From an uncultured Chloroflexia bacterium (GTDB taxonomy: Bacteria; Chloroflexota; Limnocylindria; Limnocylindrales; CSP1-4), in assembly GCA_963719285.1 (NCBI GenBank), contig CAVRBO010000004.1:95103-159102 (forward strand): DNA of 64,000 bases, read 5' to 3'. The translations under genes were made by a program, and so were the position numbers. Shown here one piece after another: positions 3,329 through 59,422 of this stretch. The notes under the pieces are model-generated. The model saw only the letters and a list, made by a program, of their open reading frames with translations. It was not told where the DNA came from and searched no databases. Every line of letters starts with the position of its first letter. Position 1 is the stretch's first letter.

Positions 3329-3437
3329 GGCGCGCAGGTCTGCCGGTCCCGGCCGGTCCCGGCCCGGTCGAGGGCCTTCACGGGGCGTGGATACTGTCAG
3401 CAGCCACGCCGGCGGATCCACCAGCACCGAGGAGCCC

Positions 3438-4304
3438 GTGACCGACGCGCCAGCCGCCACCGCCGCGCCGCGTCCGGATGCCCAGGGACCGGGCGTCCTT
3501 CGGGTCGACTTCCCGGCGCCGGCGCTCGACGGACGGCCCACTGGAGTCGAGGACCCGGCCCGCCACGTGGCGCTCGTGACCCTCGATCGTCCGGCCCAGC
3601 TCAACGCCCTGAACGACGCGCTGCTCATGGCCCTCGCGTCCGCGCTGGAACGCCTCGACACCGATCCCGACTGCCGCTGCGTCGTCATCACCGGGGCCGG
3701 CGAGCGGGCGTTCGCGGCCGGTGCGGACATCAAGGAGCTGATCGACCAGACGACGGAGTCGCTCGTCGAAGGCGGCTCGTTCGATGCGTGGGATCGCGTC
3801 CGGCGCGTGCGCAAACCGCTCATCGCGGCCGTGCGCGGCTACGCCCTCGGCGGCGGCTGCGAGCTGGCGATGGCGTGCGACATGATCGTGGCCGGCGATG
3901 ACGCCCAGTTCGGCCAGCCGGAGATCAAGATCGGCGTCATCCCCGGCGCGGGTGGCACCCAGCGCCTGACCCGGGCGGTCGGCAAGGCCAGGGCGATGGA
4001 GCTCATCCTGACCGGTCGGCCGATCGACGCCCGTGAGGCGGATGCCCTGGGCCTGCTGACGAGCGTCGTGCCGGCCGAGGCGACGCTGGCCGCCGCGCTG
4101 GCGCTGGCCGGTCGGATCGCCGCGATGCCACCGCTCGCCGTGATCGCCGCCAAGGAGGCGGTCCGGGCCGCGTTCGAGGGCAGCCTGACGACCGGGCTCG
4201 AATCCGAGCGGCGCCTCTTCTTCGGGCTGTTCGGGAGCGACGATCAACGCGAGGGCATGGCCGCGTTCATCGAAAAACGTACGCCGCGCTGGAGCGGCCG
4301 CTAG
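3438..4304 (+). CDS. paaF: Enoyl-CoA hydratase (PaaF-like)
   Basis: AFAAGADIKE, GYALGGGCELAMACD, FGQPEIKIGVIPGAGGTQRL; GTG start after GAGGAG; paa context. Confidence 0.85.
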   Translation: MTDAPAATAAPRPDAQGPGVLRVDFPAPALDGRPTGVEDPARHVALVTLDRPAQLNALNDALLMALASALERLDTDPDCRCVVITGAGERAFAAGADIKELIDQTTESLVEGGSFDAWDRVRRVRKPLIAAVRGYALGGGCELAMACDMIVAGDDAQFGQPEIKIGVIPGAGGTQRLTRAVGKARAMELILTGRPIDAREADALGLLTSVVPAEATLAAALALAGRIAAMPPLAVIAAKEAVRAAFEGSLTTGLESERRLFFGLFGSDDQREGMAAFIEKRTPRWSGR

Positions 4305-7063: not shown

Positions 7064-7417
7064 ATGCCGAAGCGGGCCGACCGCACGGAGCCACCTGCCC
7101 CCGAACGCCGACTCGAACCCTGGGAAGTCTTCCGGCGCGAGCGCCCGGGCGACCCGATGGTCCACGGCGGATCGGTCATGGCACCCGATGCCGAGCTGGC
7201 GCGCCACTACGCCCGCGAGATGTTCGGCCGTCGGCAGGAGAGCGAACGCCTGTGGATCGTCCGGCGGTCAGATATCGGCGATCTCCACGACATGGACCTG
7301 CTCCATCCGCCGCTCGATCGCTCGTACAAGAAGCCCGGTGGCTACGTGATGCGCGACAAGCTCGCCGCAGCGAGGGCTCGGACCGGGCAGGCGAAGCCGA
7401 AGGCGCGCGAGGGATGA
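7064..7417 (+). CDS. paaB: Phenylacetyl-CoA epoxidase subunit B
   Basis: PWEVFRR...HGGSVMAPDAELA...ARE.FGRR.E..LWIV; located between paaA and paaC. Confidence 0.85.
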   Translation: MPKRADRTEPPAPERRLEPWEVFRRERPGDPMVHGGSVMAPDAELARHYAREMFGRRQESERLWIVRRSDIGDLHDMDLLHPPLDRSYKKPGGYVMRDKLAAARARTGQAKPKAREG

Positions 7418-8196
7418 CGGCCGGGGGCAAGCTCACCGCAGCGGCGCGCGAGGCGCTCGGTGGGTTGCTTCTCGCGCTCGCCGACGACGAACTCATCATC
7501 GGCTACTGGGACAGCGAGTGGACCGGGATCGCGCCGCAGCTCGAGGAGGACGTGGCGATGTCCTCGCTCGCCACGGACGAACTCGGCCACGCCCGGGCGT
7601 TCTACACACTCCTGGGGGACCTGACCGGTCGGGACCCGGACGCGATCGCCTACGACCGTCCGGCCGAGGCGTTCCGGCACGCCCGGATCGTGGACCACCC
7701 ACGGACCGACTGGGCATTCTCCATCGCCCGCCGCTGGCTCTACGACACGGCCGACGCCGTCCGCCTGGAGGCGCTGGCCGAATCTGCGTACGAGCCGCTC
7801 GCCGAGCTCGTGGCGAAGGTCCGGCGCGAGGAGCGCTACCACGTGATGCACGCCGATGCGTGGCTGCGCCGCCTGGCCGGCGGCGACCCGGTCGCGCGCC
7901 GTCACCTCGAGCGGGGATGGGCGGCCCTCGTCGACGACGGCACGAGCGTCTTCGCGCCACTCCCCGGGGAGGCGGCACTCGTCGCGGCCCGGATCCTGCC
8001 CGTTCGCCTCGACCTGCTCGCCGAGCGCTGGACCGCCCAAGCCGACGCCGTCGCCGCGGAGCTCGGCCTCGCCCGCCCGGCGCCGACCGCTGCCTCATCG
8101 CAGGCGCGCGGCCGCCTCGACCACTCGGCCGATTTCGCGTGGCTGTGGTCGGAGATCACGTCCGTCCGCCGGCTCGACCCGGCGGCCACCTGGTGA
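7414..8196 (+). CDS. paaC: Phenylacetyl-CoA epoxidase subunit C
   Basis: LALADDELIIG, APQLEEDVA, DELGHAR, REERYH; ATGA overlap with paaB. Confidence 0.92.
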   Translation: MTAGGKLTAAAREALGGLLLALADDELIIGYWDSEWTGIAPQLEEDVAMSSLATDELGHARAFYTLLGDLTGRDPDAIAYDRPAEAFRHARIVDHPRTDWAFSIARRWLYDTADAVRLEALAESAYEPLAELVAKVRREERYHVMHADAWLRRLAGGDPVARRHLERGWAALVDDGTSVFAPLPGEAALVAARILPVRLDLLAERWTAQADAVAAELGLARPAPTAASSQARGRLDHSADFAWLWSEITSVRRLDPAATW

Positions 8197-8243: not shown

Positions 8244-8757
8244 ATGCACGCCCCAGCGATGCTCGCTCCTACGGACGTCGAAACCGTCTGGGCCGCCCTC
8301 GCGGAGATCCCGGACCCCGAGATCCCGACGATCTCGATCGTCGACCTCGGCGTCGTCCGGTCCGTGGATCTCTGCGACGACGGGGTTACGGTCGAACTGC
8401 TGCCGACGTTCGTCGGGCTGCCCGGCGCTCGAGGTCATCCGCGTGGCCGTGGAGGAGCGGCTGGCCGGTGTCCGCGAGCGGGTCGATGTCGTGTTCAGCT
8501 TCGCGGAACCGTGGACGACCGAGCGGATCAACGACCGTGGCCGGCTCGGGCTGATCGCCGGTGGGTTCGCGCCGCCGGCGCGCGACGGCGCGACGCGCGG
8601 TTCGGCGCCGATCGTGCCGCTCGACGTCCAGGTCGCGTGCCCGATGTGCGGTTCGCGCCGGACCCGCCTCGATAACGTCTTCGGTCCGACGCTGTGCCGG
8701 TCGATCCGCTACTGCCTCGACTGTCGCCAGCCCTTCGAAGGGTTCAAGGTGGTGTAA
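8244..8757 (+). CDS. paaD: Phenylacetyl-CoA epoxidase subunit D (frameshift near 8416)
   Basis: IPDPEIPTISIVDLGVVR, PTFVG/CPALEVI across a GGG run, CPMCGS...FGPTLCRSIRYCLDCRQPFEGFK. Confidence 0.9.
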
Positions 8758-8759
8758 CG

Positions 8760-10940
8760 ATGGCCGACGAGAAGACGGGCACCCCGCCGACCCCACCCGC
8801 CGCACCGGCCGAGCCGCCAGCCGCGCCTGCTTCGGCCGCGCCTGCGCCGGCCGCGCCAGCGCCGGCGGCACCGGCCCAGCCGGCGGCCGCTCCTCCGCCC
8901 GGGAGCGCGACGCTGCCCCCCGGGCCACCTGCGACGCCCGCTGCACCTCCCGCGGGTCCGCCACCCAACCAGGCACCCGATGACCCGCGCTGGCCGGCCG
9001 GTCTCGAGTGGCCCGTGACGCCACCGCCCCCGCCGCGCCCCGGCGCGCCCGCGGGACCGCCTCCCCAGGGCGCACCTCGACCGGCTGCCCCGCCCGCCCC
9101 GCCGGCCGGTGGCCCCCCTCCGGCACCACCGCCCGCGAGTGCCCCGCCCGCGAGTGCCGCGCCCGCGGCTGCCCCGCCCGCCCCGCCGGCCGGTGGCCCC
9201 CCTCCGGCACCACCGGCTCAGCCGCCGGCTGCCCCAGCCGCCCCGCCGGCCGGTGGCCCCCCTCCGGCACCGCCGGCCGCGCCGGCTCAACCGCAGGCCG
9301 GACCTCCGCCGGCGCCTCCCGGCCCGCCCCCCACCGCTCCACCCAACGATCCGCGCTGGCCCGCCGGCTTCGAGTGGCCGGTGACTCCGCCGCCGCCGCC
9401 GCGACCGGGCGCACCGGCAGGTCCGCCACCGGCGGCTCGCCCAGCCGGCCCGCCCCCGGCCGCCCCAGCCGGGCCGCCGCCGGCCGCCCCGCCGCCGCCC
9501 GCCGCACCCCCGGCGCAGGCACAACCTGCGCCGGCTCCTCCGCCCCCGGCTGCCGCGCCAACCGCGGCCCCGGCCCCGCCGCCGGCCGTAGACGCGCCAC
9601 CGGTGGCCCCACCCCCGCCAGCCGCGGCCCCGGCGCCTGAAGCACCCCCCGCTGCCTCGGCCCCTGCGCCGGCCGCCCCGGTCCCGGCCGCCCCGGTCCC
9701 GGCCGCCCCGGCTCCGCCGCCAGCCCCTGCCGCACCGCCCGCCGCCCCGGGCCCGCCGCCAAAGCCGGCTCCGTTCACGGTGGCGATCATCGGAGCCGGA
9801 ACCATGGGTACCGGCATCGCCCAGGTCGCGCTTCTCAATGGGCATCCCGTGCGCCTGGTCGACACCGATCCGGCCGCGTTCGACCGGGCGCGCCAGCACA
9901 TCGGTCAGGCCGTCGCGGGCATCGCCACCAAGCGTGGCCTCTCCGGCGACCAGCTGAACGGGGCCGTCAACAACGTCCTCTCTCGCCTCACAACGGCGGC
10001 CGATCCGGCAACCGCGATCGAGGGTGCCGCCCTGGCCATCGAGGCCGTGGCCGAGGACCTTGCCTCCAAGCAGGCCGTCTTCCAGGCGCTGGCAGCCGCG
10101 TCGCCGAACGCGATCCTCGCCACCAACACGAGCGCTCTGTCGGTCGCGGCGATCGCGAGCGTCGCCGAGAAGCCGGGCCGGGTCGTCGGTCTCCACTTCT
10201 TCAACCCGGTTCCGGCGATGGCGCTCGTGGAGGTCGTGGCGGCCGCCACGACGGATCCGGCCGCTGCCGCGAACGTCGCGCGCGTCGTCACGGGCTGGGG
10301 CAAGACACCCGTCCGGAGTACCGATTCACCGGGCTTCATCGTCAACCGGATCAACCGTCCGTTCACGATCGAAGCGTTGCGGATGATCGACGAGAAGCTG
10401 ACGACCGCCACGCGGATCGACCAGGCGATGAAGACCATCGGCTTCCCGATGGGCCCATTCGAACTCATGGACCTGATAGGGCTCGACATCAACCTGGCCT
10501 CCACGCGTGCCATCTACGACGGGTTCGGCCAGGCGCCACGCTTCCTGCCGTCGCCCACCCTGGAGCGCCTCGTCGCCGAGGGGACCCTGGGCCGGAAGAC
10601 CGGATCCGGGTTCTACAACTACGACGCGGCCGGCAAGAAGGCCGACCTCGTCACGGGCCTGCCCGGGGGCGACGTTCCCGAGTTCGGCATGGGCAGCGTC
10701 ACCGAGCGGATCCTCCACGGCATCGTCAACGAAGCCTACCGGGCGCTCGGCGATGGAGTCGCCAGCGAGGCCGACATCGACACCGCGCTCAAGCTCGGCG
10801 CAGGGCATCCACTCGGGCCGTTCGAGCGCGCCGCCCGCCTCGGCGGACCGGCGTCGGTCGTGTCCGCCCTGAACCGTCTCAGTGCGGCGTACGGTCCGGC
10901 CTTTGAGCCTGCGCCACAGCTCCTCAAGACCATCGGCTAG
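8760..10940 (+). CDS. paaH: 3-hydroxyacyl-CoA dehydrogenase (PaaH-like) with long Pro/Ala-rich N-terminal extension
   Basis: IIGAGTMGTGIAQ, EAVAEDL, ATNTSALS, GLHFFNPVP, PGFIVNR, PMGPFELMDLIGLD; catalytic part starts near 9770. Confidence 0.85.
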   Translation: MADEKTGTPPTPPAAPAEPPAAPASAAPAPAAPAPAAPAQPAAAPPPGSATLPPGPPATPAAPPAGPPPNQAPDDPRWPAGLEWPVTPPPPPRPGAPAGPPPQGAPRPAAPPAPPAGGPPPAPPPASAPPASAAPAAAPPAPPAGGPPPAPPAQPPAAPAAPPAGGPPPAPPAAPAQPQAGPPPAPPGPPPTAPPNDPRWPAGFEWPVTPPPPPRPGAPAGPPPAARPAGPPPAAPAGPPPAAPPPPAAPPAQAQPAPAPPPPAAAPTAAPAPPPAVDAPPVAPPPPAAAPAPEAPPAASAPAPAAPVPAAPVPAAPAPPPAPAAPPAAPGPPPKPAPFTVAIIGAGTMGTGIAQVALLNGHPVRLVDTDPAAFDRARQHIGQAVAGIATKRGLSGDQLNGAVNNVLSRLTTAADPATAIEGAALAIEAVAEDLASKQAVFQALAAASPNAILATNTSALSVAAIASVAEKPGRVVGLHFFNPVPAMALVEVVAAATTDPAAAANVARVVTGWGKTPVRSTDSPGFIVNRINRPFTIEALRMIDEKLTTATRIDQAMKTIGFPMGPFELMDLIGLDINLASTRAIYDGFGQAPRFLPSPTLERLVAEGTLGRKTGSGFYNYDAAGKKADLVTGLPGGDVPEFGMGSVTERILHGIVNEAYRALGDGVASEADIDTALKLGAGHPLGPFERAARLGGPASVVSALNRLSAAYGPAFEPAPQLLKTIG
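8982..9432 (+). repeat. Coding repeats in the PaaH extension: 2x DPRWPAG(L/F)EWPVTPPPPPRPGAPAGPPP and 3x A(P/A)PPAGGPPPAPP
   Basis: Copies start near 8982 and 9348; gccccgccggccggtggcccccctccggcacc occurs three times between about 9095 and 9272. Confidence 0.85.
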
Positions 10941-11036
10941 CATCCGCTAGCATTGACCGCCAGGGTGCGGCGGGCCGGTCCGCCGTGCGCAGGGATGTCC
11001 CACCGCATGATGCGTCCCAGGGCTCGAGGAGGAACC

Positions 11037-11696
11037 ATGACCCGAACAGCGCGGCCTGTATTAGGTTCGATCGTCAGCGCGATCATGCTGGTGGTCCTGA
11101 TCGTGGCCTGCGGGAGCAGCGCCACGCCGGCGCCGCCCAGCCAGGCTCCCGGCGCGACGGCTCCCGCCAGCGGCGCTCCGAACGCGTCCGACCCACTCGG
11201 CGGCCTCGGAGGCCTGTTCGGCTCCCTTGGCCTGGGAGGGTCCTTCGGACTCGGCAATCTCCTGCATGGGGCTCCGGACCTGGAGGCCGTCCTGCCGGCC
11301 GAGCTGTGCGGGGCCCCCACGCTCAAGTTCAGCTTCGGCGGGGCGAGCTTCGGAGCAGCGGCCGGCCAGATCCCGGCCTTCTACGGCGACTTCGTCGGGG
11401 CGACCGGCAAGTCCATGGCCGACGTCTCGTTCGCGTCCGCGTCGTCGACCTCAAGCGACACGTGCCCGGACATCACCGCGTTCAAGGTCAACGGCCTCGA
11501 TGAGAACGCGCTCAAGGGCTTCTACACGACGATGGAGACGAGCGACGGCAACTCGCCGACCGATGCGTCCATCGGCGGCAAGAACGTCGTCAAGACGACC
11601 GATGACAGCTACGCCTACTTCAAGGGCGACACGGTCTTCGTGGTCGACGCCAGCTCGGACGATGAGGCCGCGGTGGGGCTCCAGGCTCTTCCGTAA
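11037..11696 (+). CDS. Putative lipoprotein
   Basis: GAGGAGG SD, hydrophobic signal, lipobox IVAC followed by an S/P/A-rich linker. Confidence 0.8.
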   Translation: MTRTARPVLGSIVSAIMLVVLIVACGSSATPAPPSQAPGATAPASGAPNASDPLGGLGGLFGSLGLGGSFGLGNLLHGAPDLEAVLPAELCGAPTLKFSFGGASFGAAAGQIPAFYGDFVGATGKSMADVSFASASSTSSDTCPDITAFKVNGLDENALKGFYTTMETSDGNSPTDASIGGKNVVKTTDDSYAYFKGDTVFVVDASSDDEAAVGLQALP

Positions 11697-11792: not shown

Positions 11793-13022
<1,230 letters not shown>

Positions 13023-57679: not shown

Positions 57680-59422
57680 GTGTCATTCGTTCATCGGTCG
57701 GGACTGGGCCCCCGCGTGTTTGCCGCGCTTGCGGCTGCCGTCCTCCTCCTGGCGCTTATCGCCGGATCGGTCGCGGCATCCGACAGTCACGGCGCTCTTC
57801 GCGACTCGTTTGTCGCACCGCGCTACGGCACGCCCGCGACGGTCATCCGGTTCTCGGTCACGTTCCAGGGTCAAGGCGAACGCTCCCACGCGCATGTCGA
57901 CGTCCTTGTCGACGGCGTCGCTCACGCGATGGCGCGCTCGGGAATGCCACTGCTCACGGGCGTGCGCTTCAGCCTGTTCACCACCCTCGGCCTCGGCACG
58001 CACGGGATCGCGTTCCGCGGCGCCGACGGGCAGTCGAGCGCCACGCTGCCGGCCGGGTCTGTCACGATCGCGGCCGATCCGGGCGGCGATCCGAGCGCTG
58101 GCGGGAGCGGCGGCGGTACCGGTCCGGGCGGCCAGCCGCGCCCCACGGCGACCCCGCCCGTGGCGACCCCACCTTTGGCGAATCCGACGCCGCCCGCGGC
58201 GACCCGGCCGCCGCCCGCTCCCACGCCGAAGCCGAAGCCGACGCCCACGACGGCTCCCGCGGCGACCACGGCCCCGGCGGCACCCACGGCTCCGGCGACG
58301 CCCGGCGCCACGCCCACCCCCGGCGATGGGGGAACACATGACGGCGTCGGGCCTTCGCCCGGCTCCTCCACCGGCGGTGCCCAGGCGACCTCGCTCGATG
58401 TGCCTGGCGCCGCCGACCACACAAGCGGTCCTGGCGGTGGTCCGGCGACCGGCGGCTCATCCGCCGGCGCCCCGCCGACCGCGGGTCGGGAGTACGACTC
58501 CGCCGGCGCGATCGTCTCGTCCCCGACCCCCTCGCCGGAGGGCCTCGCTCTTGGCCTGACCGGCATGCCCGAAGCCGGAGGCGGCGGCGCGGGCGGTTCG
58601 GGAGGGTCCGGTCCGACAGGTGGCAACCTCGACGACCGGACCCTCAGCCTCCTCACCGGCACCGTCGGCGACATCCCGCCCGCGACGCGGATGCTCGTGG
58701 CCGCCATCTCGACCACGACCGCGACGACCGCCGCGGCCGCGTTCTTCCTGTTCGGCAAGCGCCGTCGCGACGGTGAGCCGCCGGAGCCGGACGAGGTCCT
58801 GGCCGCCAACGCCGCGCGCCTGTCCGACCGACCCTCGTCGTCCCTGGTCCCGGTGGACGCGCCCGGCAGCGGCGCTCGTAACGCCGATGAGAATGCGATC
58901 CCACGCTGGCGCCGACCCTCGCTGATCGAGGCTCGCAAGGCCGATCCCCGTTACTCGGCCACCGCCCCCCACGGACGGCAGTCCTTCAATCACGGCGGCG
59001 ACCCGGACACGGCCGGCGCGGAACGCCGGCGGATCCGCTATCGCGCGGTCAGCCTGCTCGATGCACCGGACCCCCTCCGATCCGCCGCGATCGGCGACCT
59101 TGACGAGGGCGACGAGGTCCAGCTGCTCGAGCGTTCGGGCGGCTACTGGCTCGTGCTCTGCCCGGACGGCTTGCAGGGCTGGGTGCACCGGATGACCCTC
59201 GGCGACGTCGTCGAGTACGAAGGTGGTTCGAGTGCGTTCAACACCGCCCGTCGCTCGTTCGCGACCCGTGTCGCGGATCCGGCCGAGACGGTGCGAGAGG
59301 GCGAGGCGGTCGACCCGAGCGCGACCGGCGCCACCCCTGCCGACCGGTCGATGGCCGAGGATGGCACCGACCTCCTGAGCGCCTACATCGCCCGCCGCCA
59401 CGCGACGTTCGGCAAGGGCTGA
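57680..59422 (+). CDS. Single-pass membrane protein with Pro/Thr/Gly linker and C-terminal SH3-like domain
   Basis: Signal peptide, beta domain, low-complexity linker, AAAFFLFGKRRR, then IGDLDEGDEVQLLERSGGYWLVLCPDGLQGWVH. Confidence 0.75.
   Translation: MSFVHRSGLGPRVFAALAAAVLLLALIAGSVAASDSHGALRDSFVAPRYGTPATVIRFSVTFQGQGERSHAHVDVLVDGVAHAMARSGMPLLTGVRFSLFTTLGLGTHGIAFRGADGQSSATLPAGSVTIAADPGGDPSAGGSGGGTGPGGQPRPTATPPVATPPLANPTPPAATRPPPAPTPKPKPTPTTAPAATTAPAAPTAPATPGATPTPGDGGTHDGVGPSPGSSTGGAQATSLDVPGAADHTSGPGGGPATGGSSAGAPPTAGREYDSAGAIVSSPTPSPEGLALGLTGMPEAGGGGAGGSGGSGPTGGNLDDRTLSLLTGTVGDIPPATRMLVAAISTTTATTAAAAFFLFGKRRRDGEPPEPDEVLAANAARLSDRPSSSLVPVDAPGSGARNADENAIPRWRRPSLIEARKADPRYSATAPHGRQSFNHGGDPDTAGAERRRIRYRAVSLLDAPDPLRSAAIGDLDEGDEVQLLERSGGYWLVLCPDGLQGWVHRMTLGDVVEYEGGSSAFNTARRSFATRVADPAETVREGEAVDPSATGATPADRSMAEDGTDLLSAYIARRHATFGKG

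Follow-up and report, generated by a model that had tools for sequence, protein, structure and literature searches.

Short linear binding motifs are recognised as small conserved islands in disordered sequence that otherwise drifts, and sticker-and-spacer proteins, such as the Rubisco-binding motif proteins of pyrenoids and carboxysomes, repeat such islands along a low-complexity chain. Pro/Ala chains are also familiar as tethers. The Ala/Pro-rich inter-domain linkers of 2-oxo-acid dehydrogenase E2, about 20-40 residues long, join folded domains, and both these linkers and the PAS-type Pro/Ala/Ser polypeptides are extended, soluble and flexible. The cargo-loading domains of family 2 encapsulins are described, in the available part of the source, as N-terminal, disordered and rich in Pro, Gly and Ala, about 120 to more than 200 residues long, with short motifs that can repeat; the cargo enzymes named there are 2-methylisoborneol synthase and cysteine desulfurase, and the motif is GPxGLGT (PMC11550324). 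Here we describe a 64,000-nucleotide stretch, the window, from an uncultured Chloroflexia bacterium (GenBank assembly GCA_963719285.1, contig CAVRBO010000004.1, positions 95,103 to 159,102), in which a phenylacetate catabolism (paa) cluster holds an open reading frame (ORF) at 8760-10940 (+). The ORF encodes a 3-hydroxyacyl-CoA dehydrogenase preceded by a Pro/Ala arm that carries a Trp motif twice. The arm is best explained as a lineage-specific, N-terminal intrinsically disordered region of the enzyme; very probably, it is translated and its motif is under selection.

The arm resembles each of the described systems in part. As in sticker-and-spacer scaffolds, conserved aromatic and basic islands are repeated in fast-evolving low-complexity spacers, but there are two stickers per chain, and the motif is on the enzyme itself rather than on a dedicated scaffold protein. 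With the E2 linkers and PAS-type polypeptides it shares the character of an uncharged Pro/Ala tether, whereas, unlike the E2 linkers, it is 335 residues long, terminal and provided with conserved motifs. The N-terminal, disordered, Pro/Gly/Ala-rich layout with repeated short motifs, found here on a metabolic enzyme, matches that of the family 2 encapsulin cargo-loading domains as they appear in the accessible text of PMC11550324, which offers a precedent for the architecture.

The Pro/Ala arm and its reading frame

The arm is dominated by Pro (152 of 335 residues, 45%) and Ala (105, 31%), followed by Gly (22, 7%), and its DNA has a GC content of 85-89%. All four Trp, the sole Phe and both Leu of the arm fall inside the two motif copies. 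Proline occurs in 20 runs of three or more residues, with 27 overlapping PPP triplets. The N-terminus, MADEKTGTPPTPP, read directly from the sequence, has no hydrophobic stretch, which indicates the absence of a signal peptide. Within the host genome (G000; 3.4 Mb, 90% complete, 71% GC), the arm frame of 359 residues is by far the longest Pro/Ala tract. The second-longest proline-rich tract, a 126-residue open frame outside the window (G000:C4:22660 (+)), is a near-perfect (PPPPL)n repeat, WPPPWPPPLPPPPLPPPPL....

An AlphaFold2 run on the ORF protein with a 42-row alignment placed no secondary structure before residue 341. The predicted local distance difference test (pLDDT) score, taken in 10-residue blocks, was 29-53 in the arm to residue 310, rose to 60 and 69 in the two blocks next to the fold, and was mostly above 90 in the catalytic part. 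A Trp-cage-like packing of the Trp residues on polyproline was considered and rejected, as the model has neither structure nor a confidence peak at the motifs. A preliminary description of this DNA, made from the letters of the sequence, had proposed a disordered Pro/Ala arm of about 335 residues without a signal peptide and in frame with the dehydrogenase; the composition, the predicted disorder, the N-terminus and the reading frame all bear it out.

The codon usage of the arm differs from that of the enzyme. The GC content at the third codon position (GC3) is 0.75 in the arm (8760-9764) versus 0.88 in the catalytic part (9765-10937). CCA, CCT, GCA and GCT each make up 11-13% in the arm; in the catalytic part CCT, GCA and GCT are at about 4%, and CCA at 15%. 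The wobble position is the least GC-rich codon position of the arm, the reverse of the usual high-GC pattern.

The evidence that argues most strongly for translation is comparative. Two other sequences carry the arm: the congeneric genome G002, which belongs to a different species and is 65% complete in 8 contigs, and L042, an independent metagenome contig. In both, the paaD stop is followed by the cap MADEKT.TPPTPP, motif 1 and motif 2 in the same order. G002 also has the same junction between the arm and the Rossmann strand, and the frame of L042 is unbroken through both motifs to the end of the contig. In the window, the paaD stop TAA occupies 8755-8757 and the dehydrogenase ATG at 8760 begins 2 nt later, preceded by a Shine-Dalgarno (SD)-like sequence (Table 1). 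None of the internal in-frame GTG codons at 9015, 9381, 9603 and 9780, the last of which stands just before the Rossmann strand, has an SD-like site upstream.

The forward frame of the arm contains zero stops over its whole length. The antisense frame that shares its wobble positions also shows just one or two residue changes between the motif copies, a caveat absent from the preliminary description. That antisense frame is interrupted by stops at 9220 and 9289 in this genome and by one stop in L042, and the forward frame is the sole wobble-consistent frame without stops.

Conservation and distribution of the Trp motif

Copy 1 of the motif starts at position 8982 and copy 2 at 9348, in phase and at a distance of 366 nt. 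They differ at 16 of 84 nucleotides: 15 differences are at codon position 3, all synonymous, and one is at position 1 (Leu/Phe). A recount thus returned the same 15 synonymous and single non-synonymous differences, over 28 codons, as the preliminary description. When 16 substitutions were placed at random, at most one amino-acid change resulted in 0 of 20,000 trials. As peptides the copies are identical at 27 of 28 residues, and the third position differs in 15 of the 26 codons able to vary synonymously, which points to an old duplication of the motif rather than recent slippage.

The same contrast appears between orthologues. In the comparison of G000 with L042, motif 1 has 21 synonymous and 4 non-synonymous differences with one gap, and motif 2 has 19 and 3 without gaps; spacer 1 has 17 and 9 with 15 gaps, and spacer 2 has 37 and 30 with 12 gaps. 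Among six aligned motif copies, two each from G000, G002 and L042, 29 of 43 columns are invariant, with the consensus GPPP(N/T).(A/P)P.DPRWPAG(L/F/I)EWP.TPPPPP(R/K)PGAPAGPP. Apart from the Arg ahead of the first Trp, each Arg and Lys within the motifs precedes a Pro. Across the orthologues, the first copies group together and so do the second copies, with NxAP versus TAPP before the core and Leu/Ile versus Phe within it. The duplication therefore predates the split of the lineages, and both copies have been kept since. The motif spacing is 366, 379 and 396 nt in the three lineages.

The spacers have a different history. Three units of spacer 2 (9078-9129, 9162-9213 and 9222-9273) share 87-96% nucleotide identity and are recent duplications at the DNA level, so the arm grows by duplication. 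A conserved island is thus flanked by fast-evolving disordered sequence, as is typical of short linear motifs. Judged from these sequence comparisons, the motif is kept by purifying selection on the peptide. Given that the position of the arm is kept in G002 and L042, that most columns of the motif are invariant and that the spacers drift, we consider the arm translated and the motif under peptide-level selection. Two proposals of the preliminary description, selection on the peptide rather than DNA slippage and a sticker-and-spacer layout, are in agreement with these data.

The motif is confined to this gene within the host genome. Among the sampled genomes of the family, it was found in two, G000 and G002; 14 further weak matches to the motif query all lacked the Trp core and were discarded. 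A degenerate DNA pattern of the motif, run against one genome per species (185,579 species), returned the G002 record and two unrelated membrane proteins, and against a metagenome collection it returned L042 only. The six-copy profile had 0 matches in 1.84 billion protein representatives; the same profile scores the window protein at E = 4.7e-28 for a database of that size, so the absence of matches carries weight for the proteins in the library. A word-indexed protein search with the motif region and near and shorter lengths gave 0 matches at E <= 0.01, with doubtful sensitivity, since the search also missed the window's own protein. Seemingly long N-terminal matches in other genera, with query starts from residue 8 to 245, turned out to be paaD read-through or wrong-frame GC-rich sequence and not arms. 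The expectation that the motif is conserved in related genomes was thus borne out in G002 and L042, so that it is not absent from all orthologues, but it is confined to one small clade. The simplest history would be a single gain of the arm in a recent ancestor of a small group of uncultured Chloroflexota from soil.

A 507-residue metagenome protein, P0002, clusters with G000 and G002 and begins with VPFTVAIIGAGTMG, near-identical to the junction of the arm with the Rossmann domain; an arm may lie ahead of its called start on the same contig. The C-terminal half of P0002, in contrast to that of the window enzyme, is similar to the long E. coli type of PaaH. In the literature, we found no report of a Pro/Ala arm on PaaH. 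A search of sequencing runs returned five DNA runs with small word shares (0.07-0.14), with no RNA run listed, and the reads of four of them gave short, low-depth contigs, mostly on the catalytic part, with the motif copies uncovered.

A proposed docking tether and its rivals

As to function, we tentatively favor an inert Pro/Ala tether with a bivalent docking motif, and we infer both that the motif might bind and what it might bind. In the common ancestor, a short N-terminal tail would have separated the start codon from the first Rossmann strand, and this tail would have lengthened as GC-rich Pro/Ala codons underwent duplication and slippage. About 250 residues would now form a nearly uncharged, extended and soluble tether, and the two islands of about 37 residues, GPPP..P.DPRWPAG(L/F/I)EWP.TPPPPP(R/K)PGAPAGPP, would serve as short linear motifs for docking. 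The two Trp residues are six residues apart and, in a segment with polyproline-II conformation, would face the same side; two motifs per chain would tie the oligomeric enzyme bivalently to a folded partner.

Several observations weigh against a docking tether. The lowest pLDDT of the whole model is at the motif blocks (29-31 for residues 71-90), and the prediction thus offers neither a folded nor a self-docked state of the motif. The selection signal comes from three related arm-bearing sequences and thus few lineages. The motif is absent from 399 of the 401 sampled family genomes, the other family loci have no Pro/Ala arm (11 of 11), and P0001, a protein homologue with 75% identity in the catalytic part, is armless and groups outside G000, G002 and P0002; the enzyme thus works without the arm in most relatives. 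The G002 orthologue (L002, G002:C3 1501-3620) contains at least four frame changes: three in the arm and one within the Rossmann domain. Since that genome is only 65% complete and one shift lies inside a conserved domain, the shifts suggest indels of the assembly, with gene decay in G002 as the alternative; a similar insertion of 1 nt is present in the assembly of the window itself, in a run of G in paaD near 8415.

The preliminary description had pointed to PxxPxR, the eukaryotic class II SH3-ligand pattern, and to an SH3-type reader. The pattern fits PPPPPR in four of the six motif copies, Lys replaces Arg in the other two, and the SH3 pattern leaves unexplained the Trp core, the part that does not vary. 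In the 90%-complete genome, SH3_1 and WW had 0 matches each, the WW model being silent in control genomes too, and the bacterial SH3_3 domain alone was found, at three places, one of them in the window. Thus, the pattern survives in part, the proposed reader found no support, and the arm does not qualify as a class II SH3 ligand. The SH3_3 match in the window, at 59078-59197 (+) (G000:C4:154180-154299), scores 26.3 bits, just under the cut-off, and lies in a 1022-residue open frame. A complex prediction for the motif (with the 6-copy alignment), the catalytic domain and the PaaJ-like thiolase scored 0.00, a value that speaks neither for nor against binding. Co-expression of the E. coli Paa proteins, as far as the available part of the source reports, gave a PaaF-PaaG complex only and none with PaaH (PMC4498308). 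The idea of a scaffold for the Paa enzymes, also raised in the preliminary description, therefore has no precedent there, and we found no support for it or for the condensate role that the description suggested.

The alternative that survives best holds that the arm is mostly a passive low-complexity expansion, produced by GC-driven slippage and tolerated, or mildly useful as an inert bristle for solubility or spacing, with the motif kept for a non-docking reason, for instance as an ancestral N-terminal remnant. In the part of PMC6821194 available, bacterial low-complexity regions are most enriched in Pro, Gly and Ala, with CCG prevalent, and the arm of this 71% GC genome has that typical composition. 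The near-identical recent repeats of the spacers, a length that varies between lineages and the many relatives without an arm all fit such an expansion, and the lower GC3 of the arm may reflect relaxed codon selection. However, it leaves unexplained the near-complete identity of the two peptides despite the changes at more than half of the variable third positions, as well as the persistence of both copies in three lineages, and no other Pro/Ala tract of the genome is comparably extreme. We regard passive expansion as less probable than a docking tether, but as the likeliest of the alternatives.

Polyproline stalls ribosomes, and Trp matters in known arrest peptides. The arm could accordingly act during synthesis, as a translational throttle or nascent-peptide element: polyproline would slow synthesis, create a need for elongation factor P and set the level of the enzyme relative to the translationally coupled upstream genes, and the Trp segment would act in the ribosome tunnel. 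The many Pro runs and PPP triplets, the PPPPP(R/K)PG in each motif, the invariant block that passes from the Trp core straight into PPPPP and the start codon abutting the paaD stop are consistent with this. A throttle, however, requires neither 335 residues nor two copies, and the conserved block extends beyond the prolines (GAPAGPP), which makes this role improbable.

Recruitment to a compartment has a comparably small chance. In its broader form, the arm would be an address label, the DPRWPAGxEWP-polyproline island recruiting a beta-oxidation-type enzyme of aromatic catabolism to a proteinaceous compartment, a scaffold or a condensate that would be new for Chloroflexota and would have no detectable encapsulin or bacterial microcompartment (BMC) shell; we consider this improbable as well. 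Cargo loading or targeting to a protein compartment or condensate, be it similar to family 2 encapsulins, similar to microcompartments or of an as yet unrecognised type, appears slightly less probable still. For all the likeness in architecture, Linocin_M18 (PF04454), the family 2A model (NF041162), BMC (PF00936) and Phage_capsid (PF05065) each had 0 matches in the 90%-complete genome, the family 2A negative being weak, as that model was silent in control genomes too. The family 2B model NF041163 matched five places, in its cNMP-binding part only (positions 65-205 of 450). The motifs GPxGLGT and LPGPP are both missing from the arm, the conserved islands of which are the Trp motif, and a beta-oxidation-type dehydrogenase is not among the cargo classes named in the available part of PMC11550324. 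With the shell and the motif both missing, we do not file the arm as family 2 encapsulin cargo. Nor does it qualify as a BMC encapsulation peptide, given that residues 1-340 have no helix and PF00936 has no match.

Trp and Arg favor membrane interfaces, and an Arg/Trp/Leu/Trp core could in principle sit at the lipid-water interface and hold the enzyme near the membrane. DPRWPEGLEWP and DPRWPVGVEWP stand directly before a hydrophobic helix in the two membrane proteins returned by the DNA pattern, but these matches came from the pattern designed on the motif itself and are likely coincidence. Moreover, the core is flanked by Asp, Glu and prolines, and no amphipathic helix is predicted, so that a membrane anchor seems a long shot. 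The two membrane proteins, L040 818-849 (-) and L041 2671-2702 (-), are mutually similar and come from an alphaproteobacterial metagenome-assembled genome (MAG) and a Pseudomonadota MAG. Least probable of all, and very much so, is an untranslated arm, in which the enzyme would start at GTG 9780 to give M-AIIGAGTMG, in line with the very short N-termini of relatives, the conservation in the wobble-aligned antisense frame and the scarcity of stops in all six frames at a GC content of 87%, and the GC-rich kilobase before it would be non-coding or an antisense gene; GTG 9780 lacks an SD-like site, the antisense frame is interrupted, three assemblies conserve the forward-frame peptide at the cap, in both motifs and at the junction, and a 1-kb spacer would be odd in a tightly packed operon, in four relatives of which paaD runs directly into the dehydrogenase.

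The arm is very narrowly distributed, and enzymes with a disordered tail that bears linear motifs are already known as a kind. Selected linear motifs in long disordered regions are nevertheless rare on bacterial housekeeping and catabolic enzymes, and the explained cases, encapsulin cargo loading among them, brought subcellular organisation to light. The present arm would be a young and clean case, with a single gain in a small clade and an old internal duplication kept in three lineages, and with clear selection on a 28-37-residue peptide that has no relatives among the 1.84 billion protein representatives. A 43-residue peptide and a well-folding enzyme also make a small test object for the evolution of docking motifs from GC-driven low-complexity sequence. 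Should the motif bind nothing, the locus would be a caution that strong peptide conservation in a low-complexity arm need not mean scaffolding.

The catalytic domain and neighbouring genes

The catalytic part of 391 residues is a short-form 3-hydroxyacyl-CoA dehydrogenase. Both Pfam domains are above their gathering scores: 3HCDH_N at residues 340-522 (1.9e-51, 174.9 bits, cut-off 22) and 3HCDH at residues 525-621 (3e-42, 143.5 bits, cut-off 22.1). PRK08268 and TIGR02279 are its best NCBIfam matches, both below cut-off; the PaaH equivalog TIGR02279 reaches 329.1 bits against a cut-off of 669.4, and its best stretch spans profile positions 7-292 of 503. The gene lies in a paa cluster with PaaA, PaaC, PaaD, an enoyl-CoA hydratase and a 3-oxoadipyl-CoA thiolase. 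The preliminary description had called the enzyme PaaH; the pathway context and the dehydrogenase domains agree with it, whereas the equivalog score does not, and the name depends on gene context. The enzyme shares its fold family and pathway position, beside paaD and the 3-oxoadipyl-CoA thiolase, with E. coli PaaH, 3-hydroxyadipyl-CoA dehydrogenase (PDB 3MOG). The E. coli protein differs in having about 500 residues and a second, reduced Rossmann domain, and no Pro/Ala arm, according to the accessible part of PMC4498308.

Table 1. Features of the dehydrogenase ORF and its surroundings, in window coordinates (aa, residues of the ORF protein).
Feature	Position	Strand	Residues and sequence	Basis or remark
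Enoyl-CoA hydratase	3387-4304			paa cluster member
PaaA	6060-7055			paa cluster member
PaaC	7252-8196			paa cluster member
paaD, C-terminal part, zinc-ribbon	8443..8757	+		Pfam Zn_ribbon_PaaD 3.1e-20; TIGR02159 PaaD 2.8e-23
Shine-Dalgarno-like site	8748..8752	+	GGTGG	7 nt upstream of ATG 8760, sequence read directly
ORF of interest	8760-10940	+	726 aa	open throughout
Pro/Ala arm	8760..9764	+	aa 1-335	composition; predicted fully disordered; stop-free frame
N-terminal cap	8760..8801	+	aa 1-14, MADEKTGTPPTPPA	versus L042: 9 identical, 4 synonymous, 1 non-synonymous codons; also in G002
Trp motif copy 1	8982..9065	+	aa 75-102, DPRWPAGLEWPVTPPPPPRPGAPAGPPP	conserved block to 8943-9071
Spacer 2, three near-identical units	9078..9273	+	(R/P)(P/A)AAP(P/A)APPAGGPPPAP	repeat search, translations
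Trp motif copy 2	9348..9431	+	aa 197-224, DPRWPAGFEWPVTPPPPPRPGAPAGPPP	conserved block to 9309-9437
Spacer 3, Pro/Ala tandem repeats	9432..9764	+	periods 15-24 nt	Tandem Repeats Finder rows 9399-9503, 9660-9760
3-hydroxyacyl-CoA dehydrogenase, Rossmann and C-terminal domain, PaaH-like by context	9765..10940	+		Pfam, NCBIfam, AlphaFold2
ORF with lipoprotein-like N-terminus	10953-11696	+	247 aa	no Pfam or NCBIfam match
3-oxoadipyl-CoA thiolase (PaaJ/PcaF-like), pathway neighbour	11793..13022	+		Pfam Thiolase_N and Thiolase_C; TIGR02430 1.5e-172

Upstream of the dehydrogenase, paaD (8244-8757) is split over two frames by the extra G in its GGG run, as compared to L042; the DUF59-like N-terminal half reads in phase with 8244, the zinc-ribbon half in phase with 8443. 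The insertion is probably a homopolymer assembly error, and possibly a real frameshift. Downstream, the ORF between the dehydrogenase and the thiolase has an N-terminal hydrophobic stretch that closes with ...VACG. G024 lacks this ORF, and gaps of similar size in G002 and G007 suggest that it is conserved in some relatives.

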